Below, one piece after another: positions 1 to 17,500 of a stretch of 20,000 bases of DNA (position 1 is its first letter; each line of letters opens with the position of its first letter). Made by a program: the position numbers and the translations under genes. Origin of the DNA: an uncultured virus (IMG/VR IMGVR_UViG_3300044719_000152) (lineage: Duplodnaviria > Heunggongvirae > Uroviricota > Caudoviricetes); the IMG/VR virus record IMGVR_UViG_3300044719_000152; one strand, given 5' to 3'. The notes below the pieces were generated by a model. That model was not told the origin of the DNA. It did not search any database and saw only the letters and a program-made list of their open reading frames with translations.

Positions 1-1008
1 GCTGGTGGCGCCGGTGTCGAGGGCGAAGCTGAACTCGTCCTCGTCGGAGTTGACGGCGTCGGCGGTGTCGGTGTCCGGCGCGGTGAGCGCGTACCGCTGG
101 GGGAAGGCTTGGTAGTCGACGCCAGCCATGTGGCTGAGGATCAGCTTGTGGATCGCGTCCTGCGGGCCGAACGCGGACAGGTGCTCCGGCTTGCCGTACG
201 GCCGGCTGGCCGCGCGGAAGTGAAAGACGGGGACCTCGTTGAACGGATTTACGAGCGGCCACTCGTCACCCGGGTTGTCCCGGTACGGGTGCATGTCGCC
301 GGCCTCGACGTTGGTGACGCCCTCCTTGGAGATGAACCGCTCGATCCGGTCCGGGTAGTACAGGTCGATGCGGACCTGCTGGGTGTTGTTCAAGATCCAT
401 TTCTTGACCGCGTACCGCTTCCGCAATGGGCGCTCGGGGTCGTAGAAGACCCGGCAGCAGTGCGGGCTGTTGTAGAAGATGTCGACGTTGAGGAACCCGT
501 CGGCGTCGGTGTCGAGCAACTGGGGCGAGCCGTCGCCCTCGAAGTCGTCGGCGCCGTCCGGGGCGGTGGGCCAGACGATGACGTAGGCGTCGCCGTACTC
601 GCACGCCTTGAGCATGATGTGCGGGGCCTCGAGGTCGAGCTGGTTGTCCCGCCACATGTCCTCGATGCGGGCGTTGCTGTTCTCGTCGGTCGCGGAGACG
701 GCGTTTATCTCCAGGCGGTCGACGACAGCGTCCACGGGGGTCTTGGCGAAGTTGAACCGGAACCCCACACCGGTGCGGGCCATGGCGCGGCGGAGCCGGA
801 TCGAGGCGAAGAACTCGGGGACGGTGCCCTCGTAGTAGTTCTCGGCGCGCTGGTAGAGCACCGCGGAGGTGGTGAGGGATTCGATCGCGTTCTGCAGGTC
901 CGAGGGCGATGATGGGCGCCATACGCCGTAGGCAGAATCCGACATGAGGGTAGGGGTGGCCGCGACGCCCATGGTGGCCTGATCGGTCAACGCGAGGTTC
1001 TTGTCCAC
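1..1008 (-). CDS. Phage portal protein (SPP1 gp6-like), 3' end beyond the window edge
   Basis: Not in the ORF track because it is open at the edge. Manual translation from GTG at 1008, after AGGAGG: MDKNLAL...AENYYEGTVPEFFAS...FRFNFAKTPVDAVVDRLEI...MWRDNQLD...ACEYGDAYVIVWP...YQAFPQRYAL. These are typical actinophage portal motifs, directly downstream of the terminase large subunit. Confidence 0.9.
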   Translation of the reverse strand, partial: MDKNLALTDQATMGVAATPTLMSDSAYGVWRPSSPSDLQNAIESLTTSAVLYQRAENYYEGTVPEFFASIRLRRAMARTGVGFRFNFAKTPVDAVVDRLEINAVSATDENSNARIEDMWRDNQLDLEAPHIMLKACEYGDAYVIVWPTAPDGADDFEGDGSPQLLDTDADGFLNVDIFYNSPHCCRVFYDPERPLRKRYAVKKWILNNTQQVRIDLYYPDRIERFISKEGVTNVEAGDMHPYRDNPGDEWPLVNPFNEVPVFHFRAASRPYGKPEHLSAFGPQDAIHKLILSHMAGVDYQAFPQRYALTAPDTDTADAVNSDEDEFSFALDTGATS

Positions 1009-1077
1009 GGGCGTCCTCCTGTGCGCGGATATGCACAGGGTAAACGCGCTGTGCGGCTATTCCGGTAACGGACCGCG

Positions 1078-1109
1078 ACATTAGCAGTGTGTGAAAACAA
1101 TGCTGTCGA
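1078..1109 (-). promoter_or_regulatory. Putative extended -10 promoter for the portal/structural genes
   Basis: The minus strand reads TCGACA-N20-TAATGT with TGn directly before the -10 (TGCTAATGT, 1078-1086), in an AT-richer 119-bp gap between terminase and portal. Confidence 0.45.
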
Positions 1110-1127
1110 GAATTGTTTGCGCACGAT

Positions 1128-2732
1128 TCAAGAGGCGATGTCATCGGCATCGAACCCAGCCGGCGGCAGCACGGTGACCTTCGACTTCTTGCCCGGCTTG
1201 AGGAACATGTCGATGCCGGTGCCAATCGCATCCACCAGGTCGTCATGCGCGCCCTTGGGGAAGCCGACCATCTGCTCCTCGGCCTGCGTCAGCGGACGCT
1301 CGTGTACGACGTACGGCAGCCCGTCCGGCCGGCGGCGCTGGTACCAGTTCAGGGCGCGGGCGGCCCGGACCTCCTTGGCCTCGCCCTGGTGCACCGGTTT
1401 GATCGGCAGCGGGAGTCCCTTGAGGACGCTGTCCCGCCAGACTTGGCCGCCCTGGTTCGTCTCGACCACCACGCCGCGCGTCTCCGGGAACTCCTCCAGC
1501 ACCTCCAGCACCCACTTGCGGAGCGGCTCGCCGGGCTGGACGCGCCGGGCGTGGGCGTAGCGGACGACGACCCGCCGGTGGTGCGCCGAGTAGGCAACGA
1601 CGGCCAGCGCGGTGAAGTCGCTCTTGCCCTTGTCGGTGACCGCCGGGTCAATCGACAGCAGCTGGTGCGTGAGTGCAGGCACGGTGGCGTGGACGAAGTC
1701 CTCTTCGCGCCAGTACTCACCGTCCCGACCCATGGGGTCGTTGGCGTAGTTCTTCTTGTAGGCGCGGGTGTGCCGGATCGATTCGAGGTAGGCCAGTGGC
1801 CACTTCGCCGGCCACAGGCTCCGCTCGGCGCCAGTCTCGTCGTCGCGGACGATCGCCGGGTAGTAGTGGACTCGCCAGTGCTCGTCGGCAATCCACGGCG
1901 GGTGTTCCTCGCCGGGCTTGGTGACGGTCTTGACCAAGTCGTGCACGATGGAGCCCGGCATGGTGACGGTGCCGACCAGGACCACGCGGGCATAGACGTT
2001 GAGCGGCAGGATCGCGTCGAGCAGTGTGGAGAGCCGCTTCTCCTTGAGATATGGCGAGTAGTTCGACTCGTCGGGCTCGACGTCGTCCAGCACGATCAGG
2101 TCTGGCCGCCGCTCAGCGACCTTCATGCCGAGGGCGGCGCCGTCGACACCGCGGGCGGCGAACACGAACCCGGACTTGGTGATCAGCATGCCGCGGTTGT
2201 CGGACTCGGTGCTTCCGCGCGGCCGGCGGGCCGGCGTGCACAGCTGGGGGAAGTCCAGCGCCAGCAACGCGTTCTGGTCGAGCTCGCGCTTGAACGTCTG
2301 GAGGTGCAACTCGGCCTGCGTGGCGGAGTGTGCAAAGGCGGCGCAGAACCGGCGGTGCCCATGCGCCGCGGACCAGAGGGGCAGCACGAGGAAGAACCAG
2401 GTGCTCTTACCGACGCCGCGGGGGCCGACGTAGGTATCCCGGTCCTCCGCCGGGTTGTCGGATGGGAGCGCCCACTTCTTCGCCTCGACGACGACGTCCA
2501 GGTGGAACTCGCTGAACGTGATGCGCTCGCCGGTCTCCTTACCCCGCAGGTGGTGCGGCAGATACAGCAAGGCGAACAAGAGCGGGTCGTACTTGGTGAG
2601 GAGCCGCCGGCACTCGGCGATCTCCAGCATCCGCGGGTCGAACTGCGCGAGGTACGCGTCCAGGTTGAAGCCGACCCCCGACGCCGGGTCTGCCGGGTCG
2701 GGGGTCGGCTCGTGATCCTGGACAGCGGTCAC
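1128..2732 (-). CDS. terL: Terminase large subunit
   Basis: Walker A GPRGVGKST, Walker B PDLIVLDDVE, RNase H-like nuclease motifs SIDPAVTDKGKSDFTALAVV, VVETNQGG and FPKGAHDDLVDA; adjacent to the portal gene. Confidence 0.95.
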   Translation of the reverse strand: MTAVQDHEPTPDPADPASGVGFNLDAYLAQFDPRMLEIAECRRLLTKYDPLLFALLYLPHHLRGKETGERITFSEFHLDVVVEAKKWALPSDNPAEDRDTYVGPRGVGKSTWFFLVLPLWSAAHGHRRFCAAFAHSATQAELHLQTFKRELDQNALLALDFPQLCTPARRPRGSTESDNRGMLITKSGFVFAARGVDGAALGMKVAERRPDLIVLDDVEPDESNYSPYLKEKRLSTLLDAILPLNVYARVVLVGTVTMPGSIVHDLVKTVTKPGEEHPPWIADEHWRVHYYPAIVRDDETGAERSLWPAKWPLAYLESIRHTRAYKKNYANDPMGRDGEYWREEDFVHATVPALTHQLLSIDPAVTDKGKSDFTALAVVAYSAHHRRVVVRYAHARRVQPGEPLRKWVLEVLEEFPETRGVVVETNQGGQVWRDSVLKGLPLPIKPVHQGEAKEVRAARALNWYQRRRPDGLPYVVHERPLTQAEEQMVGFPKGAHDDLVDAIGTGIDMFLKPGKKSKVTVLPPAGFDADDIAS

Positions 2733-2863
2733 ACCTGCTCCGGCGGTCGGTGAGCGTCACAGCACCCGTCGGCCGTGACCTGGCCAACGCACTCCTCGCT
2801 GTCGCGTTGGCACGGCAGGTATTCCTCGTCGGACACGAGCGGGCGGTCGAACCCGGGGCTCAT
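2729..2863 (-). CDS. Small Cys-rich hypothetical protein (44 aa), below the ORF-track cut-off
   Basis: MSPGFDRPLVSDEEYLPCQRDSEECVGQVTADGCCDAHRPPEQV. ATGA overlap with the upstream gene and GTGA overlap with terL, so it fills the gap exactly. Confidence 0.6.
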   Translation of the reverse strand: MSPGFDRPLVSDEEYLPCQRDSEECVGQVTADGCCDAHRPPEQV

Positions 2864-3165
2864 GCCGGCCACGCCCAGTTGCCCGGCTGGTCGCCCTCGA
2901 CGCGCGAGGTCGCCCAGTACTGGCCGTACCCGTCGAGTTGCACCATCAGGTTGGCCGTGGTGGTCGACGGGTCGAACACGGCGACGATCGTCGCTGGGTA
3001 GATCTGGCCGGCGTGGACCGAGTTGCGCTGGTAGATGTCGTACTCGCCGCCGTCGAGGCGGGTGCCCTTCCGGTGCTGCGGCGCGTGGGAGTCGATGAGG
3101 GCAAGGTCGCCCTCGCTGACCTTGTAGAGGACGTGCGCGCCGATGCTCGGCTTCTGGTCGGTCAT
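2860..3165 (-). CDS. Hypothetical phage protein (101 aa)
   Basis: GGAG RBS, protein-like composition (KPSIGAHVLYKV...PATIVAVF...ANLMVQLDG...GNWAWPA), co-oriented in the operon. Confidence 0.8.
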   Translation of the reverse strand: MTDQKPSIGAHVLYKVSEGDLALIDSHAPQHRKGTRLDGGEYDIYQRNSVHAGQIYPATIVAVFDPSTTTANLMVQLDGYGQYWATSRVEGDQPGNWAWPA

Positions 3166-3242
3166 GTCACTCTCCGTTCATCAGCATTTGCAAGTGCGAG
3201 TGTTTCGCCGGGGATCTCCGGCACTTGCGTCACGGTCAGTTG

Positions 3243-3953
3243 CTATCCAACCCACCGCCACGGCACCGGGTCTGGTCGGAGCGCCGCGTTCAGCGCGTCG
3301 TGGTGGACCACGACGGCCGTCCCAGGTGGTACGAGCGGGCTGTACCGGATCGGCAGGTCGGGCATCGCGCCGACGGCGACGCGCGTCATCACGGCGGGAC
3401 CGTCGGCCGCTCGGCAGTAGAGGGCGCGGCCGGTCAGCTCGGTCGGCTCATGCCGTGCCTGCTGCATGTGGGCAACGGCGACGCGCGCTGCGTCTGCGAT
3501 GTGCCGCTCCAGCTCGCTCGCCGGCGCGACCGCCGCAGGCATGGCCAGCGGGGAGAAGTCGAGCACCTCGACGGGCTCCTCCTCGACGTTCCCCGCGGTG
3601 ATCCGGTACGACCGCACCTCGGGCTCGTCGGCGCGGAGCGAGACGATGACGTAGTGCGCGTCCGGTTCGGCGGCGTACCGCACATCCGGCGCGGACGGGT
3701 ACGCCTCGGTGGCCGGGTGGGAGTGGTAGATGACCACCGGTTGCTCGCCGCGCCGGTCCATGTCGAGCCACACGGCGAGCTGCTCGCCGGGGTCCATCTC
3801 GTAGCGGCTGCGGGACTGGGCGGCGTTGCGCATGGGGACGTGCCGCTCGGCGAGCCCATCCCGGCCGGCGAGCACGCCGCACGCTTCGAGGGGTGCTTCG
3901 GCGCGGCAGTGGGCGACCATGGCGTCCAGGAGGTCACGGCGTAGGCGCAGCAC
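3243..3953 (-). CDS. JAB/MPN+ (JAMM, M67) metallopeptidase, Mec-like, with a ~100-aa C-terminal extension
   Basis: EACGVLAG and IYHSHPATEAYPSAPD match E...HxH-x7-S-x2-D. The N-terminal ~133 aa closely resemble my recollection of mycobacterial Mec/Rv1334 (AMVAH, PVVIYHSH, EPDAHYV, RSYRI, EEPV). Start moved to GTG 3953 after GGAGG. Confidence 0.9.
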   Translation of the reverse strand: MLRLRRDLLDAMVAHCRAEAPLEACGVLAGRDGLAERHVPMRNAAQSRSRYEMDPGEQLAVWLDMDRRGEQPVVIYHSHPATEAYPSAPDVRYAAEPDAHYVIVSLRADEPEVRSYRITAGNVEEEPVEVLDFSPLAMPAAVAPASELERHIADAARVAVAHMQQARHEPTELTGRALYCRAADGPAVMTRVAVGAMPDLPIRYSPLVPPGTAVVVHHDALNAALRPDPVPWRWVG

Positions 3954-4137
3954 TGGGTGCCTCCGGTTCATCCAGGGCGGCGCGCAGGCCGTCGATGATG
4001 TACTGCACGGAGCCCGACGCGCGGTGCTCCTCGTCGTGCTCCAGCGACGTGATCGCCTCGCGGATCGCGGCGCCGAGCCGGTCGACGCGGCGGCCGAGGA
4101 TCCGGGCCAGCGCGGTCGAGGTGGCCGAGGCGCTCAT
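3934..4137 (-). CDS. Hypothetical protein (67 aa)
   Basis: MSASATSTALARILGRRVDRLGAAIREAI...; ATGA overlap with the upstream gene; this is the C-terminal part of track ORF 3934..4395. Confidence 0.6.
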   Translation of the reverse strand: MSASATSTALARILGRRVDRLGAAIREAITSLEHDEEHRASGSVQYIIDGLRAALDEPEAPSAAPTP

Positions 4138-4331
4138 GCCGGCTTCCCCTTGACCTCGACCCAGTCGACGGCGGTGAGGTTGATGAGGCGCTGGCCGGAC
4201 GCGTCGTTGATGGTGAGGACGCCACCGAAGCCGAGGTCGTCGACCAACGCGGTGAACTGCTTCAGCTCGTCGTCGGTGGGGCTGTAGGCGACGGTGTCGC
4301 CGTTGCGCATGTGCAGGACGATCGGGATCAC
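4134..4331 (-). CDS. Hypothetical small protein (65 aa)
   Basis: MIPIVLHMRNGDTV...RLINLTAVDWVEVKGKPA; GTGA overlap with the HNH-like gene and an AGGAG RBS. Confidence 0.7.
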   Translation of the reverse strand: MIPIVLHMRNGDTVAYSPTDDELKQFTALVDDLGFGGVLTINDASGQRLINLTAVDWVEVKGKPA

Positions 4332-4804
4332 GGCTGCTCCTTCGAAGCGGGCGGCCACTCGCTGGCCGGCACGAACTCGGCCGGCGGCGGCGCACCCGCG
4401 CGCCGATACCGCAGCGGCTCCCAGAACGGGCCCGGCAGCACGTGCACGCCGAGGTGCGTCCGGTGGTGCGTCGCGCACAGCGGCTCTAGGTTCCCCGGCC
4501 CCTCGATCCACGCCTGGAAATCGGCGTCGGACTCGAAGTGCAGGCCGAACGCCGCGGCGACCTTGTCCGGGTCCATGTTGTTGACCTCGGAGAACTCGAT
4601 GTGGCTGTGGTGCAGCTCGATCGGGCCGCCGCACAGGTCGTCGCCGATGACGCACTTCCACAGGCCCTGCCGATGGAGCCGGGCCTTGGCCTGCATGAAC
4701 AGGTGGTAGTGCGGGTCGGACTCGCGGGGTTGGTGCTCCGGGACGTGGGCGAGGATGTGCAGCGTTAGTCGCTGCTCGTGCGCCGGCGTCGGGTGGTCAA
4801 CCAT
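4328..4804 (-). CDS. HNH endonuclease-like protein, probably packaging-associated
   Basis: CVIGDDLC...IELHH...NLEPLCATHH...H fits an HNH/zinc pattern with a long insert; lies between the putative terminase subunits. Confidence 0.65.
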   Translation of the reverse strand: MVDHPTPAHEQRLTLHILAHVPEHQPRESDPHYHLFMQAKARLHRQGLWKCVIGDDLCGGPIELHHSHIEFSEVNNMDPDKVAAAFGLHFESDADFQAWIEGPGNLEPLCATHHRTHLGVHVLPGPFWEPLRYRRAGAPPPAEFVPASEWPPASKEQP

Positions 4805-5096
4805 CAGTCGGCTCCTTCGGCTTGGCGTCCTTCAACTCCGCGTCCGCCCACCGGCCCCAGAACTCCGCCTGCGCCTGGGCTATCGCCATCTGGAAGTCGA
4901 GCTCGGCCGTGGCCGCCGCCTTCACGGCTTCCTCGATGGCCTGCACCGTCCGGCACGGCCACGTCTGCGGGTTCTCGCCAGCGCACTCCGCGCAGCTGCC
5001 GTACTCCTCGTGATGCAGCCGCAGCACCGCCGCCGCGACAGGGTTCGCACTCGACACGCGGGCCAGTTCCACCACGCGGTCCCAGTCAGCTGCCAT
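4797..5096 (-). CDS. Hypothetical zinc-binding phage protein
   Basis: LH...CAEC...WPCRTV pattern common in actinophage small proteins; overlaps both neighbours. Confidence 0.75.
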   Translation of the reverse strand: MAADWDRVVELARVSSANPVAAAVLRLHHEEYGSCAECAGENPQTWPCRTVQAIEEAVKAAATAELDFQMAIAQAQAEFWGRWADAELKDAKPKEPTDG

Positions 5097-5625
5097 CGAC
5101 GCCGCCCTTCAACCGGGCCTCGGCCAGCGCGGCGTCGGCCTTGGCCTTGTTCACCATGTCGATCAGTTCGAGGTCCTGCTGCGTCGTCTCCGTCAGCGTC
5201 GCGTCGACCTTCAGCGCGCCCTCCGTGCCGTGGAGGCGCATCATGCGACCCACCAACGACTCGGCCCGGCCGATCGCCGCGAGCGTCACGCCGGGGTCCT
5301 CCAGCGGTGCACCGTCCGGGCCACGCACGACGCGGCCGTCCGACACGAGCGGGTGCGGTGTGCGGATGATCTCGACGGCCCGGTTGAACAGCCGCTCCAG
5401 GCGGTCGTGCTGGACGCGGCGGTACTGCTCGCGAAGCGGGTCGACGGTCTCCCGGATCTCGCACTCCAGGCGCCGGCTGACGGTGGTCTTGGACAGGCCG
5501 GTGAGCTCGGCGATCTCGCGGAGGTTGTGGCCGGCGAGGTACAGCTCGTAGCAGATGCGTTGTTCTTCGGCGAAGTGTGCGTTGGTGTAGCGGGGCTTGC
5601 GGTAGGGCTGGATTCCCCCGGCCAT
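5086..5625 (-). CDS. HTH protein, putative terminase small subunit
   Basis: N-terminal HTH (LYLAGHNLREIAELTGLSKTTVSRRL) followed by a helical region, 179 aa, upstream of HNH and terL; AGGAGG RBS. Confidence 0.65.
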   Translation of the reverse strand: MAGGIQPYRKPRYTNAHFAEEQRICYELYLAGHNLREIAELTGLSKTTVSRRLECEIRETVDPLREQYRRVQHDRLERLFNRAVEIIRTPHPLVSDGRVVRGPDGAPLEDPGVTLAAIGRAESLVGRMMRLHGTEGALKVDATLTETTQQDLELIDMVNKAKADAALAEARLKGGVDGS

Positions 5626-5660
5626 CGCGTTCCACCTCCTACGTTCCGTTTGCCGGCGTG

Positions 5661-5891
5661 CTATTTGTTACGTGTGAGTGCGGCCCGGATTCGCGCGGCG
5701 CGTGTCCTTGTGGTTCCGTGCCCGGCCTTGTTCTTGGGGAGTGAGCGGTAACCAGTCTTCTTTCCGCGCTCGGCGACGATCTGCTCGGCCCAGCGGTGCG
5801 CGAAGGGCTTCTTCGTGGCGAACATCCATCGCCACTGAGCTTGCGAGTGGGCTGGACCTGGCGATTTGCGGTGTCCGTGTTCCTTGGGCAT
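5661..5891 (-). CDS. Small basic hypothetical phage protein
   Basis: SQAQWRWMFATKKPFAHRWA, highly basic; GGAGG RBS. Confidence 0.7.
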   Translation of the reverse strand: MPKEHGHRKSPGPAHSQAQWRWMFATKKPFAHRWAEQIVAERGKKTGYRSLPKNKAGHGTTRTRAARIRAALTRNK

Positions 5892-5925
5892 TCACGCCTC
5901 CCCGTCGTTGTTTCCCTGGCCAGTA

Positions 5926-6174
5926 TCACCCGCCGAGGTGCATGAGGGCGTCGGCGTCCGCCGTGGACGGAGTGGGCGCGTCTGTGCTGGTGGCGGGCTG
6001 GAGGGCGACGAGTTCGAGATGCAGCGTGCCCGTGGGGAGTTGGGTGGCGCGGACCTGGTGGTTGTCGGGGAGGAATTCGTTGGGGCGGATGCTGGCGGTT
6101 CCTCCGGCGCGGGCGACGAGTACGCAGAGCACTGCCTGCGTGATGTCTTTGTCCGTGCTTTCAACTTCGCTCAC
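5926..6174 (-). CDS. Hypothetical protein (82 aa) ending in -LGG; first gene of the packaging operon
   Basis: AGGAG RBS and GTG start; a folded-looking N-terminal part plus a P/T/A/D-rich tail. Confidence 0.7.
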   Translation of the reverse strand: MSEVESTDKDITQAVLCVLVARAGGTASIRPNEFLPDNHQVRATQLPTGTLHLELVALQPATSTDAPTPSTADADALMHLGG

Positions 6175-6363
6175 GGTGTGCTCCTAGCTATTCGCTGGGC
6201 GTTATCGCCATCGTGTTCGTGTTATCAAACCGTGGCGTGTCGGCGGGTCGGCGGCGTTTGTCTGTGGGTTAGCGTAGGCCGAGAGCCGTCGGCCGCCGCG
6301 ACTGTTGACACCGTTTCGTTGTGCGTGGCACCGATTGTTTTTCACGCACGAAAGGCGGTGCTG
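6175..6363. promoter_or_regulatory. Divergent promoter region between the packaging and glycosylation operons
   Basis: Non-coding gap between divergent starts; TTGACA at 6305-6310 (+), TACGCT at 6271-6276 (-), inverted repeat GTGCGTG(6321-6327)/CACGCAC(6343-6349). Confidence 0.6.
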
Positions 6364-6603
6364 ATGGATCCGCAGAACGAACCGACGTACGTCACACCCA
6401 GGCAGTTGGCGGAGCGTCTTGGCGTCACCCCGCAGAACGTGCTCTACCACGTGAGGCAGAAGCACATCGCGGCCGAGCGGCCCGGCGGACGGGACGTCCT
6501 GATCCCGGCGGCGGAGGCGGATCGGGTGGCGGCGATGTACCGGCCGCACGCCCAGCGGATCTGGCAGGCGCGGCGACCGGAGCAGGAGGCGAAGAGTGCC
6601 TGA
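6364..6603 (+). CDS. Excisionase/MerR-like helix-turn-helix DNA-binding protein (79 aa)
   Basis: YVTPRQLAERLGVTPQNVLYHVRQKHIAAERPGGRDVLIP matches the HTH_17/Xis-like pattern; AAAGG RBS. Confidence 0.8.
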   Translation: MDPQNEPTYVTPRQLAERLGVTPQNVLYHVRQKHIAAERPGGRDVLIPAAEADRVAAMYRPHAQRIWQARRPEQEAKSA

Positions 6604-7093
6604 CTGGTTTACGTCCGAGAACCTGGCACCGCAGGGGCCAGCACCGCAGAAGTACCTGCTGGAGTGGAAGAAGCTGGGGTTCTACCAGCCGCTGTCGCGC
6701 GATGTGGCCATCCCGCCCGGTGTCACGGGCGTTGAGCTGTCGGTCGACGAGACGCTCGGCTTCTGCTCCGAGCAGATCCTGCTGAAGCTGAAGGCGTTCG
6801 TGCTGACGCATCCGCTGGCCGAGCACGAGGTGACGCGGACGAAGGCGGTCGAGTGGCCGGCGACGCCGTGGCAGCACTGGAAGCAGCGCCACAGCGAGTC
6901 GTGGTGGCTGCGGTGGCTCGTGCAGCGGTGGCCAGTGCGAATGCAGCAGCAGGTCGTGGATTTCCGGGAGGCTTGGCAGGAGATGGCCGCGTACCCATGG
7001 CAGGACCGTCTGCCGCGGCTGTCCGGCTTGGGCAGCCCGTCTCGGATGGTGGAGGTTCTGGCGGCCGAGTGGAACGTCGAGGACACGCCGTGA
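6596..7093 (+). CDS. Hypothetical Trp-rich protein
   Basis: AGGAGG RBS, GTG start, overlaps both neighbours. Confidence 0.75.
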   Translation: MPDWFTSENLAPQGPAPQKYLLEWKKLGFYQPLSRDVAIPPGVTGVELSVDETLGFCSEQILLKLKAFVLTHPLAEHEVTRTKAVEWPATPWQHWKQRHSESWWLRWLVQRWPVRMQQQVVDFREAWQEMAAYPWQDRLPRLSGLGSPSRMVEVLAAEWNVEDTP

Positions 7094-7662
7094 GCGCGAC
7101 GATCGCGGCCCGGTTCATCGGCGGCCCGTACGACGGCCAGGTGGAGAACGTCCCGGCCGACTACGACCGGGACAAGCTGATCGGCCTGGTGCCGGCGCTC
7201 CGCACGATCCGCCGGGCGCAGCCGCCTGAGTTCCGCCTGGTGCCCTCCGGGCAGCCCGAGAGCGACGTCATGCGGGACCTGTACTACGACTGCCAGCACC
7301 GCGGCGGCGAGTGGGTGTACGTCCTGCACGGCACGGACCCGGCGGTGTTGCCGGAGAAGACCGATCCGGTGTTGGAGACGCTGCTGGCGCACATACGCCG
7401 CGAGTGGCCGAACCGGCGCGTCTTCGAGAAGTCCACCAGCGTGGACGTCTACGTGCACATGGACGGCGGCGACAGGCTTGAGGAGTACGTGAGCAAGCGC
7501 CTCTTGCTGGACCTGCACGATGTGGCTGGGGCCGAGAACATGATGCTGCTGTCGGTGGACGGACCACGGTGGCAGCAGACCGAGAGTGGCTACCACGACA
7601 CGTGCACGATCAGGGGGACGGCGATCCGCCGGTGCTGGCCGCGCAAGGAGGCCGGCGCGTGA
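7090..7662 (+). CDS. Hypothetical protein (190 aa)
   Basis: MSATIAARFIGGPYDGQ..., a phage-type FxGGPxDG motif; GTGA overlaps at both ends. Confidence 0.75.
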   Translation: MSATIAARFIGGPYDGQVENVPADYDRDKLIGLVPALRTIRRAQPPEFRLVPSGQPESDVMRDLYYDCQHRGGEWVYVLHGTDPAVLPEKTDPVLETLLAHIRREWPNRRVFEKSTSVDVYVHMDGGDRLEEYVSKRLLLDLHDVAGAENMMLLSVDGPRWQQTESGYHDTCTIRGTAIRRCWPRKEAGA

Positions 7663-8633
7663 AGATCTTCGGCTGGTCGGCGGACACACAGGGGTGCAGC
7701 TACTGGCGCATGGAGCTGCCCATGGGCGAACTGGCGGCGCGTGGGCACACGACCTCGGTGCACCCGCTCCTGACGCGAGACGCACCGCAAGCGGACGTGA
7801 TCGTCGGTCAGCGGGTGCACCTGCCGGGCCCGACGGGGACGTGGCAGACGTGGGCCCGCGGCGGCAAGTTCCTGGTGTACGAGATTGACGATGACCTGTT
7901 CCGTGTGGACCAGCGGAACAGCATCGCGCACCGCTGGTACAAGCAGCAGGGCGTGCTGGACAACATCCGGGCGAACGCGGCGGCGGCGTCCCGGGTGACG
8001 GTGACGACAGAGCCGCTGGCCGAGGTGATGCGCGAGTTCAACCGAGACGTGCGGATCGTGCCGAACCTCATTCCCTCGTGGCTGTTGGAGCACGAGCCGC
8101 CGCGTCGGTCCGACGTCGTCACGGTCGGGTGGGGTGGCAGCCCGACGCACGACATGGACCTCAGCGTGATGGAGGACGAGCTGCGGCGCCTGCTGCGGAA
8201 GGAGCGCGGCTTCGAGGTGCACACGATGGGCGGGGACTACGGGCCGTTCATGCGCCTGCCGGCGGATCGGTACCGGTGGACGCCGTGGGTGCAGGGCGTG
8301 GTCCCGTTCCTGATGGCGATCGACTTTCACGTGGGGCTGTTGCCGTTGCGGGACCACGTGTTCAACCGGTCCAAGAGCTGGGTCACCGCGCTGGTGTACG
8401 CGGCGCTCGGCATCCCGGTGGTGGCCAGCGACGTCGGGCCGTACGCGGCGTTCGTGCGGCACGGCGAGACCGGGTTCCTGGTGAAGCGGCCCGGTGACTG
8501 GGTGCGGTACGTGAGGGACCTGGTGCGAGACACCGAGTTGCGGGAGTCGATGGGTGCGGCGGCCAAGGCGCTGGCGGCGAAGCACACCATCGAGGCGAAC
8601 TACGGGATGTGGGAAGAGGCGCTGCGGCCGTGA
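7659..8633 (+). CDS. GT-B fold glycosyltransferase (GT4-like), 324 aa
   Basis: GCSYWRMELP, VYEIDDDLF, VTVTTEPLA, VGWGGSPTHDMDL, FNRSKS...YAALGIPVVASDVGPY, VRHGETGFLV; AAGGAGG RBS with GTGA overlap. Confidence 0.92.
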   Translation: MKIFGWSADTQGCSYWRMELPMGELAARGHTTSVHPLLTRDAPQADVIVGQRVHLPGPTGTWQTWARGGKFLVYEIDDDLFRVDQRNSIAHRWYKQQGVLDNIRANAAAASRVTVTTEPLAEVMREFNRDVRIVPNLIPSWLLEHEPPRRSDVVTVGWGGSPTHDMDLSVMEDELRRLLRKERGFEVHTMGGDYGPFMRLPADRYRWTPWVQGVVPFLMAIDFHVGLLPLRDHVFNRSKSWVTALVYAALGIPVVASDVGPYAAFVRHGETGFLVKRPGDWVRYVRDLVRDTELRESMGAAAKALAAKHTIEANYGMWEEALRP

Positions 8634-8908
8634 CGATCCTGCGCTGGGAGGACCCGCCCCCGCTCAAGGACGGCGCTGATCAGGCGTGGGTGACTGATGT
8701 TGCCAACGTGCTGGCGGAGCGCCCCGGAACGTGGGCCGTGGTCGGTGAGTACCGGCAGCCGATGGATGCGATCAAGCCGGTTTGGCTGCTCGCGAACGTG
8801 CCGAACGTGTGGACCACTCACAGGATCTCGGAGCGCTGCACGACGCTCTACGCCTGCTGGTCCAGGAAGAAGCCCGAGGAACCGAGGGAGTCGAACGGTG
8901 GCAGCTGA
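8630..8908 (+). CDS. Hypothetical protein (92 aa)
   Basis: LRWEDPPP...LAERPGTWAVV, an actinophage-type small protein; GTGA overlap. Confidence 0.7.
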   Translation: MTILRWEDPPPLKDGADQAWVTDVANVLAERPGTWAVVGEYRQPMDAIKPVWLLANVPNVWTTHRISERCTTLYACWSRKKPEEPRESNGGS

Positions 8909-9611
8909 CCTGTTGATGATCGTGCCGAGCCGTGGCCGGCCCCAGAACGTGGCCGCGCTGCTGGACTCCTGGGCCGAGACCGCGACCGGCGCGGCAGACC
9001 TCGTCGTCGCGGTCGACGCCGACGACCCCGAGCTGCCGGGGTACGAGTCGCTGCGCATGAGCCGGTCCTGGCCGGCCGCGTTGGGGAACTTCCACATGCA
9101 CACTGGCGCGCGGCTGCGGCTGGGCGGCACGTTGAACTTCATCGCCGAGTGGGCGCTACTGCACTACCCGATGGTCGGGTTCCTCGGAGACGACCACCGG
9201 CCGCGCACCTCCGGGTTCGACCGCCGCATGGTCGAGGCGCTCACCGAGCTCGGCACCGGCATGGTCTACGCGGACGACCTTTTCCAGCGGCAGAACCTGC
9301 CGACCCAGATCGCGATGACCTCGGACATCGTGCGGGCGTTGGGCTACATGGTGCCGGGCGGTTTGGTGCACCTGTACGTGGACAACGCGTGGAAGGTGCT
9401 CGGCGAGCGGATCGGGCGGCTGCGGTACCTGCCGGACGTGGTGATCGAGCACTTGCACCCGTCGGCAGGAAAGGCCGACCTGGACGACTCGTACCGCGAG
9501 ACAAACTCGCAGCAGCAGTTCGACGCGGACCGTGGGCGGTTCGAGGACTGGCTGCGGTTCCAGGCCGATGCGGACGTGGCCCAGCTCCAGGAGCTGATCC
9601 GACGTGGCTGA
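8898..9611 (+). CDS. GT-A fold glycosyltransferase (GT2-like), 237 aa
   Basis: LLMIVPSRGRP, VVAVDADD, GFLGDDHRPRT, HLYVDN, VIEHLHP; GGGAG RBS before GTG 8898. Confidence 0.85.
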   Translation: MAADLLMIVPSRGRPQNVAALLDSWAETATGAADLVVAVDADDPELPGYESLRMSRSWPAALGNFHMHTGARLRLGGTLNFIAEWALLHYPMVGFLGDDHRPRTSGFDRRMVEALTELGTGMVYADDLFQRQNLPTQIAMTSDIVRALGYMVPGGLVHLYVDNAWKVLGERIGRLRYLPDVVIEHLHPSAGKADLDDSYRETNSQQQFDADRGRFEDWLRFQADADVAQLQELIRRG

Positions 9612-10200
9612 CGTGCCGGAGGTCCGGATCAGTCCGGACAGGACGCAGGTTGCGGTCCTCACGGATCCCGGCCAGCACACACCATGGGCCACGGTCAGGG
9701 TGCTGATCGGCGGCGTTGCAACGGACGAGTGGGTGGCTGGATGGACGCCACTCGTCGATGCAACGGAGCAGGCGGTCACTCCTGACAAAGCTGCCGCGCT
9801 GGTCCTCTACGAGGCGGCCGAGTGGGTGGCGTCCTACCGGGACCAGATGAAGCGGGGCTCCGGCGACCGGCGTGCCGCCGAACGTATCCACGCCGTGCTG
9901 GCGGATCGGGCCCGGCGGCGGCACCTCGGCGAGCTGTACGACCCGGCGATCGCCGTGAGCGGGGAGTTGCTGCGGCAGGAGCTCGCGGCGCGGCCAGCGC
10001 CGGTGGACCTGGCTGGGCTGGCCGACAAGTGGGAGAAGGAGGCGCACGCCATCGCCACTGACGGGTTCGTGCCGCTGTCCATCCGCGACAAGGGAACGCC
10101 AGAGGACGCAGCGCAGTGGCGGAAGCAGGCCGAGGCGCAGGCGTACGGCATGAACTGGTGCGCAGGCGAACTGCGGCGAGCGATGGGGGCTGGCCAGTGA
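9604..10200 (+). CDS. Hypothetical protein (198 aa)
   Basis: AGGAG RBS; overlaps both neighbours. Confidence 0.7.
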   Translation: MADVPEVRISPDRTQVAVLTDPGQHTPWATVRVLIGGVATDEWVAGWTPLVDATEQAVTPDKAAALVLYEAAEWVASYRDQMKRGSGDRRAAERIHAVLADRARRRHLGELYDPAIAVSGELLRQELAARPAPVDLAGLADKWEKEAHAIATDGFVPLSIRDKGTPEDAAQWRKQAEAQAYGMNWCAGELRRAMGAGQ

Positions 10201-10799
10201 CCGAGTGGCAGCTGTTCGAGTCGGGCACCGTGCCGGAGTGCACGACGCCGGCCTGGTACGAGGGCCGCGAGCGTGCGCCGCACGTCGACCAGGACGCGCA
10301 CCGCGGCCGGCTCGTGCTCGCCGCCGACATGGTGCGGGACGCGATCGACCAGTACGGGGTGCGGTCCGTTGTGGACCTCGGGTGCGGCGACGGCGGACTC
10401 CTGTCGCTGCTCCAGCCGTACTCGTTCGAGCACGACGTGCCGATGTGGGGCTACGACCTCCAGCGCTCCAACGTGAACCCGGCCGTGCTGGAGCGCGAGG
10501 TCGACGTGCGGTTCGGTGACGCGGTGAACGGCGCCGTCGAGTGGGGCGAGCTGGCGGTGTGCACCGAGTTCCTGGAGCACCTGGTCGACCCTCACGGGTT
10601 CGTGCGCCGGGTCGGCGAGCACGCGCGGGTGATCGTGGCGAGCTCGCCGTTTACGGAGACCGACCAGTCGCACTACGAGTTCCACACCTGGGCGTTCGAC
10701 ATGGCCGGGTATCGGGCGCTGATCGAGCAGGCCGGCTACCACGTCGAGCGGCACGAGACGACGTCGATGTTCCAGGTGATCCTCGGGAGGAAGCCGTGA
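10197..10799 (+). CDS. Class I SAM-dependent methyltransferase (200 aa)
   Basis: VVDLGCGDGGLL (motif I), GYDL, CTEFLEHLVDP. No DPPY/NPPY or PC motif, so not a DNA methyltransferase. Confidence 0.9.
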   Translation: MTEWQLFESGTVPECTTPAWYEGRERAPHVDQDAHRGRLVLAADMVRDAIDQYGVRSVVDLGCGDGGLLSLLQPYSFEHDVPMWGYDLQRSNVNPAVLEREVDVRFGDAVNGAVEWGELAVCTEFLEHLVDPHGFVRRVGEHARVIVASSPFTETDQSHYEFHTWAFDMAGYRALIEQAGYHVERHETTSMFQVILGRKP

Positions 10800-11155
10800 C
10801 CGACGACGAGAACGACGGCTGGCGGGCGCATGTCCTGTACGAGGATCGGGTGCTGTACGAGGACGGTGCGCTGCGGATGGCGCTGGGCCGCCGCATCGGT
10901 CGAGGGGCGCACGAGTGCGTGGTCGGTATCGATGCCGCGGGCGGCCTCACGCTGAAGCTGGCCGAAGAGGGCACCCAGGTGCCGACCTTCCTCCTGCCGT
11001 CCACCGTTGCCCGCGCGTTGCTCGATGCGTTGGCGCAGCACTTCGGCGGGACCGGCGACGTGCGGCAGCTTCGGAAGGAACACGATGCCGAGCGGGCCCG
11101 CGTGGACAAGCTGATCGCCACGCTCTCCACCGTCGCGACGCGGGGGCAGCCGTGA
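10796..11155 (+). CDS. Hypothetical protein (119 aa)
   Basis: GGAGG RBS, GTGA overlaps, C-terminal coiled coil (LRKEHDAERARVDKLIATL). Confidence 0.75.
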   Translation: MTDDENDGWRAHVLYEDRVLYEDGALRMALGRRIGRGAHECVVGIDAAGGLTLKLAEEGTQVPTFLLPSTVARALLDALAQHFGGTGDVRQLRKEHDAERARVDKLIATLSTVATRGQP

Positions 11156-11307
11156 CGCTAAGGCCGTACGTCTGCCGGCGGTGCCAGACGCCGCGCGCCA
11201 GCTGGGAGATCTTCGAGGCAGCCCGGTTCGGCCGCCCGAAGTACTACTGCCTGGGCTGCATCCCGTGGTGGGTGCGGCTGACGATGTGGCTGCGGGGTGT
11301 GGAGTGA
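11152..11307 (+). CDS. Small zinc-ribbon-like protein (51 aa)
   Basis: CRRC...CLGC; GTGA overlaps at both ends. Confidence 0.6.
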   Translation: MTLRPYVCRRCQTPRASWEIFEAARFGRPKYYCLGCIPWWVRLTMWLRGVE

Positions 11308-11669
11308 GCGAGCAGCAGCGCACCGAGCGGACCGCCGTCGAGCAGGCCGTGTACGACACGCTGGCCGAGTACAACCACCGCGCCCACGGCCTGACCGCCG
11401 TGCCCGAACCGACATGGTTCCTGGACTGGCTGCGGGAACGCGGCTACGAGGTCACGCCGACCGGTGCCCGGGACGAGTCGCTGTCGGAGTGGCTGGAGAA
11501 CTCGCGGGTGGCCGAGGTGCTGGCGGCGCTGGTCCGGCGTGGTGGGTCGGAGGCGGCCGAGTTCACGGACTCCGAGTTGCACGGATTCGACGCGACGCAG
11601 CAGCAGGTGCAGTTCCGGCAGGACGACGACGGGAATGTGCGCGTGGAGATCACGGAGGTGTCGGAGTGA
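11304..11669 (+). CDS. Hypothetical protein (121 aa)
   Basis: GTGA overlaps at both ends; acidic, protein-like sequence. Confidence 0.7.
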   Translation: MSEQQRTERTAVEQAVYDTLAEYNHRAHGLTAVPEPTWFLDWLRERGYEVTPTGARDESLSEWLENSRVAEVLAALVRRGGSEAAEFTDSELHGFDATQQQVQFRQDDDGNVRVEITEVSE

Positions 11670-11839
11670 GCCGGGAGACGAGGCAGCTGCACCCGCTGGT
11701 CGCGCTCGGCGTGGCCGGGCTGGTGGCGGGGTGTGTGGCTTGGGCGTGGCTGGGCGAGTGGCGGTGGGCCGTCACCGGTGTGGGCGCGCTGCTGGTGACC
11801 ACGGTGGTCGCGGCGGTGCGCGGGAAGGGGCACGCGTGA
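11666..11839 (+). CDS. Small membrane protein with two predicted TM segments (57 aa)
   Basis: LVALGVAGLVAGCVAWAWL and WAVTGVGALLVTTVVAAV; GGAGG RBS; GTGA overlaps. Confidence 0.7.
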   Translation: MSRETRQLHPLVALGVAGLVAGCVAWAWLGEWRWAVTGVGALLVTTVVAAVRGKGHA

Positions 11840-12789
11840 AGATCCTCGTCACCGGCCACCGTGGCTTCGTCGGCAGGCACCTCTGGCGCGCCCTCGCCGA
11901 CCGAGGGCACTCGCTGACGGGCATCGACCTGCTGGGCTACGGCGACCATCAGCCCGAGCTGGCCGACATCGCGACGGAGGAAAGGCGGGATGCCCTGGAC
12001 TTCTTCCGCACGGACACCACGCGGTTCGACTTGGCGTTCCACTGCGCGGCGGTGATCGGCGGCCGGGCGTCCATCGACGGCTCACCGCTCGCGGTCGGCA
12101 CCAACCTGGCGCTGGACACCTGGTACTTCCGGTGGCTGGCCCGGACGGGGACGCCGCGCGCCGTCTACTTCTCCAGCTCGGCGGCCTACCCCACGGTGTT
12201 GCAGGACCGCGGGTACCACGACCGGTATGTCGACAGCGTGCGGGATCGGGTCAGGCGATTGACCCTCGGTAACCGGCTCAGCGAGTCGGACATCCGGCTG
12301 GACGTGATGCGGCGGCCGGACCAGACGTACGGGTTCGCCAAGCTCGCCGGCGAGTTCCTGGCCCAGTACGCCGAGGGCACGCAGGTGACGATCGTGCGGC
12401 CATTCTCGGGCTATGGCTCCGACCAGGCGCTGGATTACCCGTTCCCGTCCTTCATCGACCGGGCCAAGCGGAAGGCGGACCCGTTCGAGATCTGGGGCGA
12501 CGGCGAGCAAACCAGGGACTGGATCCACATCGACGACGTGGTCGGCGCGACGCTCGCCGCCGTCGAGCAGGAGGTGCCCGGCCCGGTGAACCTGTGCACC
12601 GGCAGGCCGACCAGCTTCAACGAGCTGGCCAAGCTGGTGACCACGGAGGCCGGCTACTCCCCCGCGTTCCGCCACCTCACCGCGAAGCCGAGCGGGGTGC
12701 ACTACCGGGTCGGCGACCCGACCAAGCTCCTGTCGTTCTACGAGCCGAAAGTCAGTCTGGAGGACGGGATCCGCCGTGCACTTCAATGA
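11836..12789 (+). CDS. NAD-dependent nucleotide-sugar epimerase/dehydratase (extended SDR), 317 aa
   Basis: KILVTGHRGFVG (GxxGxxG), FHCAA, YFSSSAAY, YGFAK (YxxxK), IWGDGEQTRDWIHIDD. Confidence 0.95.
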   Translation: MKILVTGHRGFVGRHLWRALADRGHSLTGIDLLGYGDHQPELADIATEERRDALDFFRTDTTRFDLAFHCAAVIGGRASIDGSPLAVGTNLALDTWYFRWLARTGTPRAVYFSSSAAYPTVLQDRGYHDRYVDSVRDRVRRLTLGNRLSESDIRLDVMRRPDQTYGFAKLAGEFLAQYAEGTQVTIVRPFSGYGSDQALDYPFPSFIDRAKRKADPFEIWGDGEQTRDWIHIDDVVGATLAAVEQEVPGPVNLCTGRPTSFNELAKLVTTEAGYSPAFRHLTAKPSGVHYRVGDPTKLLSFYEPKVSLEDGIRRALQ

Positions 12790-13045
12790 GGAGGACTTCG
12801 AGGTCACGCCCAACACGGACGGGGCCGTCGACAGCCAGCACTTCATCACCTTCGACCTGCCGGACACCGGCGAGGACATGGTCGACCTGCTGCTGGAGAA
12901 GCTCCAACGGTTCCGGGAGCAGTTGCGCGAGGACCACCCGAACACCTTCTGGCTCAAGGGGAAGGTGACGTTCGGCGCGAGCTGGGGGATGACGTCGTCG
13001 CGGCAGCCGTCGATCCGGATCGAGATGCGGGGGCGGCGACGGTGA
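12776..13045 (+). CDS. Hypothetical protein (89 aa)
   Basis: GTG start overlapping the epimerase end; GTGA overlap with the next gene. Confidence 0.65.
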   Translation: MHFNEEDFEVTPNTDGAVDSQHFITFDLPDTGEDMVDLLLEKLQRFREQLREDHPNTFWLKGKVTFGASWGMTSSRQPSIRIEMRGRRR

Positions 13046-13434
13046 CCGGCCTGCCCGGCGCCGAGCCGCCGGACATGGCCGCCGCATCCGGCGCACCGCT
13101 CGACGAGGTGCGCGCCGGAGCATCGCGCGCCCGGACCACGAGCGCGGCGTTCGCGCCACCGTCGGCGTTCCGGGAGGTACTCGACGAGGCCACGCGCAAA
13201 GCGATCCGCGCGCACGCTGCGGTTGAGGCGCGGATGCCGGAGGTCATGGCCGGGCTGATGGCGCGGGAGCGCCTGCTGTCGGCGGGGCTCGCTGAGGACG
13301 AGCTGGAGTGGATCGTCCCGACGGCGTACGGGTGGGGTGAACCGGGCCAGGAGGGCAACCAGCTGTACGGCATCCGGATCCGCGCAGTCGAGGGCATCGA
13401 CCACCTGTACCTCGCGGCCACGGTGAAGCCGTGA
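13042..13434 (+). CDS. Hypothetical protein (130 aa)
   Basis: GTGA overlaps at both ends. Confidence 0.65.
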   Translation: MTGLPGAEPPDMAAASGAPLDEVRAGASRARTTSAAFAPPSAFREVLDEATRKAIRAHAAVEARMPEVMAGLMARERLLSAGLAEDELEWIVPTAYGWGEPGQEGNQLYGIRIRAVEGIDHLYLAATVKP

Positions 13435-14024
13435 GCCTCGACATCGGCGTGGTCATCCCCGCCCACCCTGCGCGGATCCGCGCCGGCCTGCTGGACCGCG
13501 CGGTCGCCTCGGTGTGGGCCCAGACCCTGCCAGCGGCCGAGCTGCACATCCCGGTCGACCGGCACCGCGAGGGCGCGGCGGCGACCCGGAACCGCGGCCT
13601 GGCCGCCGTCGACTCGGAATGGGTGGCGTTCCTCGACAGCGACGACGAGTTCCTGCCGCACCACCTCGAGCGGCTCGCCGCGCACGCGGTCGAGACTGGC
13701 GCGGACATGGTGTACCCGTGGTTCGAGACGCCGGGCTGGTCCGACCCGCTCGGCCGGTTCGGACAGCCGTTCGACCCGGTATCCATCCGGTCGGCGAACT
13801 ACGTGCCCGTCACCGTGCTGGTCCGGACCGAGCTCCTGCGCTCGGTCGGCGGGTTCGTCAACCTCCACGACGGCAGCGAGCGGGCCACCTGCGAGGACTG
13901 GGGAGCGTGGCTCGCCCTCATCGACGCTGGCGCGCGGATCGTGCACCTGCCCGAGCGGACCTGGCGGTGGCACCTGCACGGCGGCAACACGAGCGGCCGC
14001 ACCACCCAGGGCGACGCGGCCTGA
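13431..14024 (+). CDS. GT2 family glycosyltransferase (197 aa)
   Basis: IGVVIPAH, SVWAQT, GAAATRNRGL, WVAFLDSDDEF (DxD), CEDW. Confidence 0.93.
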   Translation: MSLDIGVVIPAHPARIRAGLLDRAVASVWAQTLPAAELHIPVDRHREGAAATRNRGLAAVDSEWVAFLDSDDEFLPHHLERLAAHAVETGADMVYPWFETPGWSDPLGRFGQPFDPVSIRSANYVPVTVLVRTELLRSVGGFVNLHDGSERATCEDWGAWLALIDAGARIVHLPERTWRWHLHGGNTSGRTTQGDAA

Positions 14025-14059: not shown

Positions 14060-14788
14060 TCATGACGCAGATTCGTCGGGGATCTCCTGCCAGTACTGGA
14101 GTTCGTACAGGTGCGCGCCTTTCACAAGCACGCTGGCCTCGACCGGCCGCTCCCCCGAGTAGATCGTCCGCAACTGCCGGATCACCGGTACATCAGAGGG
14201 CAGGTCGAGGGTCTCCAGCTCCGCGGTCGTCGGCTGGCGCGCGGAGATGCGGTCGGTCAACCGCTGCTGCGGCCATCCCTGGTCGGCCAGCACGCGGGGT
14301 GCGCCGCCGCGGATCCGGAGCCGCCGGGCCAGCGGGGTGCCGGCGGCCAGCTCGAGCGGGTAGTACGACCAGCTGATCTCGACCGGCTCACCGTCGTGTA
14401 ACAGCAGCCGGTGACGGAGGATCGCCGTGCCGTCCTCGCCGAGGCCGAGCGCTTGCGCGGCGTCCGCCGGCGGACGCGTCTCAGCGACGTCGAGCAGCTG
14501 GTAGGCGTAGCCATTCGGCATCGGTTCGAAGTAGGCGGCGATGTCGACCACGAACGGGCGCCGGTCCCGCACGTACACGCCGGCGCCGGGCCTGCTGTGC
14601 AGGTAGCCCTCCTCGCGCAGGGCGGTGGTCACCTTCTGGATGGTGGGGTTGGCGGCGCCGTAGCGGTCGACGAGCTGGGTGGTGGACGGCAGTTGGTCCC
14701 CCGGCGCGAGATCACCGGCCATGATCTTGGCGCGGAGGTCGGCCGCGACCTGCTGGTGCAGGGGCCGGGTGTCACGCGGTCGCGGCAT
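14060..14788 (-). CDS. GntR family (HutC/UTRA) transcriptional regulator
   Basis: wHTH HQQVAADLRAKIMAGDLAPGDQLPST...LREEGYLHSRPGAGVYVR plus a C-terminal UTRA domain (GEPVEISWSYYP, VIRQLRTIY, RPVEAS). Confidence 0.95.
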   Translation of the reverse strand: MPRPRDTRPLHQQVAADLRAKIMAGDLAPGDQLPSTTQLVDRYGAANPTIQKVTTALREEGYLHSRPGAGVYVRDRRPFVVDIAAYFEPMPNGYAYQLLDVAETRPPADAAQALGLGEDGTAILRHRLLLHDGEPVEISWSYYPLELAAGTPLARRLRIRGGAPRVLADQGWPQQRLTDRISARQPTTAELETLDLPSDVPVIRQLRTIYSGERPVEASVLVKGAHLYELQYWQEIPDESAS

Positions 14789-15855: not shown

Positions 15856-16160
15856 ATCACCACCCGCTGATAGCGGGGGCACCGCGGACTACGATGCTCC
15901 GACGGCGGAGTCGGTGCGGGCTGTTCGCGCTGATCTGTGCTCGACTCCGCCGCCTCCGACTTGGCCTGCTCGCCGCACCGGCGGCAGCGCGGGATGCGGT
16001 CGAGATCTGGGTTGCGGGACACCGGCACCCACGCGCGGCGCCGCACTCCGCACAGCGCAGTCGCGGTCCAGGCTCGGCCTCGTGGCGTGAGGTGGTGCTG
16101 GCACTCGATCGTGACGTTGCAGGCGAAAGGCAGGTTGACGAACCATCCGGCAACGGTCAT
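15852..16160 (-). CDS. Cys/His-rich hypothetical protein coupled to the integrase
   Basis: H...ALCG...RCRRC zinc-binding pattern; ATGA overlap with the integrase stop. Confidence 0.6.
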   Translation of the reverse strand: MTVAGWFVNLPFACNVTIECQHHLTPRGRAWTATALCGVRRRAWVPVSRNPDLDRIPRCRRCGEQAKSEAAESSTDQREQPAPTPPSEHRSPRCPRYQRVVI

Positions 16161-17398: not shown

Positions 17399-17500
17399 GG
17401 TGCCTCCCCGGTCCCCAGGGGTTTCCGCTGGGTTTCCGCTGATTCGGACTACGATAAGCGTCCCGACAGGGAGATCACAATGGCTCTGACCAGGCGAAAC

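Follow-up and report, generated by a model that had tools for sequence, protein, structure and literature searches.

The 20,000-nucleotide (nt) stretch of DNA analysed here, from an uncultured tailed virus (IMG/VR record IMGVR_UViG_3300044719_000152, Caudoviricetes) and referred to below as the window, carries a gene whose sequence identifies its product as a zinc JAMM/MPN+ peptidase of the Mec (CysO-cysteine peptidase, M67) family with an intact active site. Mec cleaves CysO-Cys after the C-terminal Gly-Gly of the carrier. The gene (3243..3953, minus strand; stop codon at 3243-3245) encodes 236 amino acids (aa) and starts with a GTG at 3953, which is preceded by GGAGG and a 6-nt spacer. An alternative ATG at 3971, 18 nt upstream, would give a protein of 242 aa; in the alignment, homologues start at the GTG. 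The protein consists of a catalytic JAB domain (residues 1-131, 3561..3953) and a C-terminal tail (residues 132-236, 3243..3560). It matches the Pfam family Prok-JAB (PF14464) with an E-value (E) of 6.2e-31 and 107 bits, against a cut-off of 25. The JAMM motif (E...HxH-x7-S-xx-D), which an earlier note on this DNA had recognized as intact, is indeed complete, with E23, H77, H79, S87 and D90 invariant in all 25 aligned sequences.

The AlphaFold2 (AF2) model of residues 1-131 has predicted local distance difference test (pLDDT) values mostly above 90. Foldseek matched this model best to minimal stand-alone JAMM proteins (2kks, 6e-12; PfJAMM1, 1.3e-9, with TM-scores by target of 0.83-0.86) and to the complex of PfJAMM1 with the ubiquitin-like SAMP2 (5lda, 2.5e-9). 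Proteins of the proteasome/BRCC36 type and a bacterial complex of a ubiquitin-like protein (Ubl) with its deubiquitinase (8tyx, 1.7e-7) appear lower down the list. The archaeal desampylases (HvJAMM1 family NF041370; PfJAMM1, 5LD9/5LDA), which bind a ThiS/MoaD-type Ubl, therefore have the minimal stand-alone fold in common with the phage protein. However, identity in the structural alignment is only 23-24%, and the match to the NCBIfam desampylase equivalog NF041370 (E 1.9e-25) scores 89.3 bits and thus falls below the cut-off of 130.

Kinship with Mec is much closer. The best cellular matches are annotated as M67 family, CysO-cysteine peptidase or Mov34/MPN/PAD-1 proteins and come from Mycobacterium, Nocardia, Pseudonocardiaceae and other actinobacteria. 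Genomic context was examined at the 80 best cellular loci, with the JAB open reading frame (ORF) obtained in 78. Downstream of JAB, 77 of these 78 loci encode an ORF of ∼ 315-341 aa ending in (Q/H)LWA, and in 59 the small ORF between JAB and the CysM-like ORF ends either in GG (37 loci) or in GG plus one to three residues (22 loci). At all three loci sampled by domain search, Prok-JAB, a ThiS family protein and PALP lie together, i.e. mec-cysO-cysM. Four of the 80 loci were left out (two without a resolved ORF, two with an ORF of more than 200 aa), and the remaining 76 homologues share 53-62% identity (median 58%) with the JAB domain of the window; the 22 other members of the window's own phage/metagenome clade share 66-77%. 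A tree (a quick IQ-TREE analysis, with branch support from the SH-like approximate likelihood ratio test, SH-aLRT, only) was built from 82 rows and 137 columns, comprising 39 phage or metagenome sequences, 38 host sequences (every second of the 76) and five lambda gpK-type proteins as outgroup. The window falls in a clade of 23 phage/metagenome rows (support 92), part of a polytomy that also contains the host Mec clade (support 94) and further phage lineages; several branches are long, and the deeper order is left unresolved. A second phage lineage (L007, L008, L010 and L011; JAB of 160 aa) is nested, with SH-aLRT 100, within the host Mec clade, a position that suggests a separate capture. In these four phages a GT2 glycosyltransferase comes after JAB. 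Identity, cellular operon context and tree all support the earlier proposal of a Mec-like peptidase captured from a host. The phage and host enzymes are alike in JAMM motif, domain size and tree grouping and presumably share their chemistry, hydrolysis after the C-terminal Gly-Gly of a carrier.

The more familiar phage JAB is that of the gpK-type tail proteins, in which it is joined to NlpC/P60. These belong to the same superfamily, and PHROG tail families match the JAB part of the window's protein (phrog_30, 1.1e-14). However, Pfam detects no NlpC/P60 domain in the protein, the gene lies outside the tail module, and the viral gpK-type JAB+NlpC/P60 proteins form a distant outgroup that is separated from Mec and the phage Mec-like proteins at SH-aLRT 99. 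The earlier distinction from gpK therefore stands, and phylogeny places the phage JAB with Mec.

What the enzyme would do for the phage is less certain. The reading we consider most plausible, though with somewhat less than even confidence, is that it acts on a host CysO-type carrier in an auxiliary role linked to sulfur and cysteine metabolism. According to this model, which is drawn from sequence comparison, actinophages took JAB from an actinobacterial mec-cysO-cysM operon and carry it alone. The peptidase would be made late, alongside the packaging genes (see below), and would, like Mec, bind the extended C-terminal tail of a host-supplied ThiS/CysO-type β-grasp protein and hydrolyse the bond after its Gly-Gly. 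Candidate substrates are the adduct of CysO with Cys, pro-CysO with an extended C-terminus and conjugates of CysO with proteins; as an outcome, the host sulfur carrier would be freed or recycled and cysteine released during virion building. The 22 host loci with one to three residues past the GG provide a precedent for tail trimming. Since so many host loci encode CysO-like ORFs that extend beyond GG, the Mec family plausibly trims tails besides releasing cysteine, and Mec may also mature pro-CysO in many actinomycetes. The remaining 19 cellular loci (L064-L143 set) have a CysO-like ORF with other endings, and at locus L097, from Micromonospora, 23 residues separate the end of the ThiS domain from the stop. 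QbsD is a JAMM enzyme that trims residues after the Gly-Gly of its carrier QbsE, and activity on C-terminally extended carriers could be a feature it shares with the phage enzyme; it differs in that no carrier gene is linked to the phage JAB.

Several points weigh against a role on host CysO. The phage copies are without linked cysO, cysM or E1 (activating enzyme) genes and hence without the defining genomic feature of Mec. The earlier note had seen no cysO/cysM, ThiS/MoaD, E1 or E2 (conjugating enzyme) gene in the window, and this was confirmed: Pfam searches found no ThiS/MoaD, ThiF, E2 or PALP among the 31 window ORFs, among 108 ORFs of G001 (the nearest relative, a complete viral contig of 76,231 bases with direct terminal repeats; three of its 111 ORFs, at stretch borders, were skipped, and the GC-frame ORF caller may miss genes) or among 140 neighbours within ∼ 3 kb of JAB at 13 other viral loci. 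Six-frame searches for PF02597, PF00899 and PF00291 likewise matched none of five phage records each, including the window's own 25.7-kb record, while the positive controls matched in 12-14 of 14 genomes. Nor is there any other sulfur-assimilation gene among the G001 ORFs. The model also presupposes a CysO in the host and does not readily explain how an extra Mec alone would lift the cysteine supply. Finally, nine positions are at least 85% fixed both in the phage clade and in host Mec, yet differ between the two, and these differences could mean that the substrate has changed. Among them, R50 and M53 each replace a host Phe and P55 replaces a host Ser in the 43-55 loop, where the JAB domain model has its lowest confidence, and P89 replaces a host Thr inside the S-x-x-D motif. 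We presume that the clade-specific residues contact the substrate.

The tail also sets the phage protein apart from Mec. The ∼ 100 aa of C-terminal sequence reported earlier are real: 105 residues are read in frame while both other frames contain stops, and GC by codon position is coding-like throughout (0.80-0.82, 0.51-0.57 and 0.85-0.87; GC of the window, 64-74%). To call this sequence an extra domain was correct only in part, since it varies, is specific to a lineage and is modelled poorly. AF2 predicts one helix (residues 147-166, pLDDT ∼ 60-65), with values mostly below 50 elsewhere. The last ∼ 60 residues form a module shared with only three other protein clusters, of 196-197 aa (P0002-P0004, one of them encoded in the syntenic phage L005), which are without the window tail's helical insert of ∼ 45 residues. 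Other members of the clade carry at least four unrelated tails, shorter or longer, and the JAB of G001 has a different tail of ∼ 80 residues behind a domain that is 77% identical. With the tail alone as query, 59 word-sharing candidates were obtained, none at E ≤ 0.01 among proteins of 57-184 aa, the only range covered. We conclude from the sequences that the tail is probably translated but is a lineage-specific, variable appendage rather than a conserved domain; it may only tune localization or partner choice.

Mec-like JABs are rare among deposited phages. The sole match in 50,697 deposited phage genomes is gp95 of Streptomyces phage Dryad, annotated 'metalloprotease' (50.7% identity over residues 7-142). 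Its tblastn match (L001, 6001-6426) starts 63 nt upstream of the annotated start of the gp95 coding sequence, so the annotated 120-aa protein may lack the first ∼ 21 JAB residues. Like the window's gene, gp95 is an orphan. It lies among small genes of unknown function in the right arm of the genome, a long way from the terminase, lacks a long tail and belongs to a separate phage lineage that groups with L009 in the tree. An alignment-based scan of IMG/VR yielded 56 loci, 17 of which (L004-L020, the window's contig included) encode Mec-like JABs (36-100% identity). The other 39 are weaker (28-43% identity over ∼ 90 residues) and include the gpK type; all five that were translated have a Cys-containing motif after JAB, judged by eye to be NlpC/P60. 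In the window, in G001 (77% identity) and in L005 (54%), JAB is located in the interval from terS to terL; in L019 and L020 it immediately precedes terS or terL, and in L017 and L013 scaffold or capsid genes are close by. Overall, it is within about 3 kb of recognizable packaging or head genes in 7 of the 17 viral loci and elsewhere sits among small early-type genes. Prophage G209, whose terL is 56% identical to that of the window, has no JAB on its own contig, and the single JAB match of that genome is on another contig; G209 was the one genome with such a terL among 401 sampled from the class of the genome (G002) of cellular locus L130. These varied positions, and the lack of JAB beside the related terL in G209, point to a mobile accessory gene that is strongly conserved where present.

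Such patchiness, with one deposited phage genome in 50,697 and a related prophage without JAB on its contig, is what one would expect if JAB were a recently captured host mec that drifts or is neutrally kept without a role in infection. We regard this as highly improbable: the catalytic residues are invariant, the domain keeps 66-77% identity over 22 clade members while flanks and tails change, codon-position GC is coding-like throughout, and the phage lineages are separate, one of them nesting in host Mec. Nor is the JAB domain a sporadic, non-conserved insertion among related phages, an outcome that the earlier note had held would speak against its proposal, as it is present in three syntenic phages and at 14 further viral loci; for the tail that description is correct.

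Carriage of an orphan JAB at variable accessory positions in many phages would also suit a counter-defence protein. JAB proteases act in ubiquitin-like antiphage systems, namely Cap3 of the cyclic oligonucleotide-based antiphage signalling system (CBASS) and Bil. The phage enzyme could accordingly strip, late in infection, a Ubl that a host defence (Bil-type, type II CBASS Cap2/Cap3-type or an undescribed ThiS/MoaD-based system) has attached to virion or signalling proteins. The proximity to packaging or head genes at 7 of the 17 loci is in line with this, the substitutions in the loop beside the active site suggest a changed specificity, and the fold match to 8tyx is consistent with the superfamily membership and isopeptidase chemistry common to Cap3 and BilC. 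In L018 a Tad2-like (Thoeris anti-defence 2) protein is encoded ∼ 2 kb from JAB (8318-8509, minus strand; Pfam E 2.3e-5, at the cut-off). We nevertheless judge counter-defence to be unlikely. The PADLOC model of defence-system JABs matches only weakly (E 0.0059, 14.1 bits, residues 8-48 only), the sequence is far nearer to Mec than to any defence-system JAB, and no CBASS- or Bil-type operon partner (E1/E2, Ubl or CD-NTase, the CBASS nucleotidyltransferase) was found in the window, in G001 or among the neighbours examined. Specificity of JAMM enzymes usually tracks the body of the Ubl, so an enzyme 58% identical to Mec is more likely to have a CysO-like partner. Bil has been reported to attach its Ubl to the central tail fibre of the phage (bioRxiv 10.1101/2023.09.04.556158, as far as its accessible text goes), which would provide a target for such an activity, but the accessible part of that preprint mentions no phage deubiquitinase, and no phage-encoded one was found in the titles and abstracts searched.

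The immediate surroundings of JAB bear on when it would be made and on possible partners. A packaging block on the minus strand fills the first 6.2 kb of the window, in the order terS, 99-aa ORF, HNH, 65-aa ORF, 67-aa ORF, JAB, 101-aa ORF, terL and portal, which confirms the position between HNH and terL given in the earlier note. TerS (5086..5625) is a small terminase-like helix-turn-helix protein, identified by matches to Sigma70_r4_2 and Sf6_terminase below the Pfam cut-offs, by phrog_1482 and by its place in the gene order. It is followed by the 99-aa ORF (4797..5096), conserved in G001 and L005, the HNH endonuclease (4328..4804; phrog_8048, 8.3e-5), the 65-aa ORF, here called small65 (4134..4331), whose GTG overlaps the HNH stop, and the 67-aa ORF (3934..4137), which overlaps the JAB start by 20 nt and is missing at this position in G001. 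Beyond JAB are the 101-aa ORF (2860..3165; phrog_19300, a small β-rich protein common in actinophages and also near JAB in G001 and L016), terL (1128..2732; phrog_38, 8.6e-68) and the N-terminal part of the portal protein (1..1008; phrog_104, 2.3e-36), which runs off the window. From terS to JAB every start overlaps the preceding stop by 4-20 nt, and no terminator-like site was found on the minus strand between 900 and 6700. Because of these features JAB is likely to be co-transcribed with the late packaging genes and would therefore be made late in infection; the late expression proposed in the earlier note is thus plausible from the sequence. The stretch from terS to terL is a variable slot in three syntenic phages (L005 1516-2067; L006 5287-5805 and 7202-7971). 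In L005 a phospholipase D (PLD)-like nuclease replaces HNH between terS and terL, and G001 has an additional predicted protein of 172 aa and two more ORFs ahead of terL.

Two small proteins of this block are leads, but not findings, as partners of JAB. Small65 is encoded upstream of JAB in the window, G001 and L005, and in G001 its stop overlaps the JAB start; it probably also accompanies JAB on two further contigs (1997 and 64432 bases; JAB proteins P0009 and P0015). Its C-terminus contains an invariant DW[VI]EVKG, in which only one Gly is present; the residues beyond it form a different tail in every lineage. A profile search of 1.84 billion representatives gave 15 matches at E ≤ 0.001, five of them of similar length (65-79 aa) and the others long proteins with many short stretches, which suggests a very narrow family. 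The AF2 model (pLDDT 83, element order b-b-a-b-b-b) resembles Mycobacterium tuberculosis Rv3208A and Sm-like barrels. In the PDB, Foldseek found nothing at E ≤ 0.001 (best match Rv3208A, 1.8e-3, then lipoprotein and Hfq-like barrels), and VIA-align over 48,161 chains ranked Rv3208A at Z 5.9 (root-mean-square deviation 3.0, 58 aligned residues) and Sm/Hfq proteins at Z up to 4.9. The idea that small65 is a cryptic ubiquitin-like protein found no support, as no ubiquitin, ThiS or MoaD is among the matches listed. The second lead is an 82-aa ORF upstream of terS (5926..6174, minus strand), a candidate Gly-Gly-terminated protein that ends ...DALMHLGG-stop in all three syntenic phages (window, G001 and L005) and is referred to here as the LGG protein. 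Its last eight residues are identical in the three, at 67% identity overall, and are preceded by a variable Pro/Ser/Thr-rich linker. Pfam, PHROGs, a PDB sequence search and the ESM Atlas (best score 0.77) gave no usable family or fold. Alignment-based and degenerate-motif scans of viral contigs for relatives returned the same three contigs only; among metagenome contigs a first motif matched none, and a second matched 34 stretches, none of which encodes a relative (one is a chance match of 14 residues).

These features raise the question of whether the substrate is encoded by the phage itself: a host E1 could activate the LGG protein and JAB take it off again, or small65 could be trimmed after ...EVKG. 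The conserved Gly-Gly ending, the association of small65 with JAB, down to the overlapping codons in G001, and the differing tails behind its invariant motif are what such a role would predict. We consider it quite unlikely, however. The three phages are close syntenic relatives, and co-occurrence of either protein with JAB in them is therefore not independent evidence; two of the 111 ORFs of G001 end in GG, so a single such ORF in the window is not rare; and both proteins are missing from most phage JAB loci. Moreover, the LGG protein is without a recognizable fold or family, and small65 has one Gly rather than Gly-Gly, while its model resembles Rv3208A and Sm/Hfq barrels, with no ubiquitin, ThiS or MoaD chain among the matches listed.

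The replacement of two invariant host Phe in the loop beside the active site, together with the interchangeable tails, leads to a related suggestion, that the phage clade as a whole has been retargeted to a late deconjugating or processing role. It would either strip a host antiviral Ubl from virion proteins or serve a phage LGG tag activated by a MoeZ/ThiF-type E1 of the host. We hold this to be rather unlikely, and regard action on a host CysO-type carrier as the better working model. Were the LGG version of retargeting true, it would constitute a phage-borne pair of Gly-Gly tag and protease with no β-grasp family assigned.

The rest of the window identifies the phage as a temperate actinophage. 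A cluster on the plus strand (7569-14024), also found in G001, encodes a GT1-type glycosyltransferase, an S-adenosylmethionine (SAM) methyltransferase, an NAD-dependent epimerase/dehydratase and a GT2 glycosyltransferase; from work on mycobacteriophages, such a cluster may glycosylate virion or cell-surface targets. A GntR/UTRA regulator with a UTRA-only ORF (14060-15329, minus strand), a tyrosine integrase (16157-17548, minus strand; matches at most 28% identical) and a NUDIX hydrolase (19504-19998, plus strand) are lysogeny and accessory genes of a temperate phage. No tRNA was found in the window. Among deposited phages, those of Streptomyces come closest by terL, at 52% identity or less, and megablast of positions 1-8000 against the 50,697 deposited phage records gave no near-identical DNA. 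The identical JAB protein occurs on five contigs, the longest of 76,752 bases.

In virome surveys 'mec' is counted among the viral auxiliary metabolic genes, by annotation alone in those parts of their text that are accessible (PMC11309003, PMC11097641), and we suspect gpK-type tail proteins behind many of these annotations. The titles and abstracts searched on phage JAB/Ubl counter-defence, CysO-Mec and Bil included no study of a Mec-type peptidase from a phage. The gene described here represents a genuine Mec-family enzyme in phages, apart from its carrier and synthase, with a conserved active site, a diverged vicinity of the substrate groove and a place in a probably late operon. Were its role the removal of Ubl tags, a counter-defence protein of deubiquitinase type would be known from a phage for the first time, as far as those titles and abstracts go. 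Were its role the recycling of host CysO, it would provide a clear example of a virus drawing on the carrier-based sulfur pathway by which actinobacteria make cysteine.

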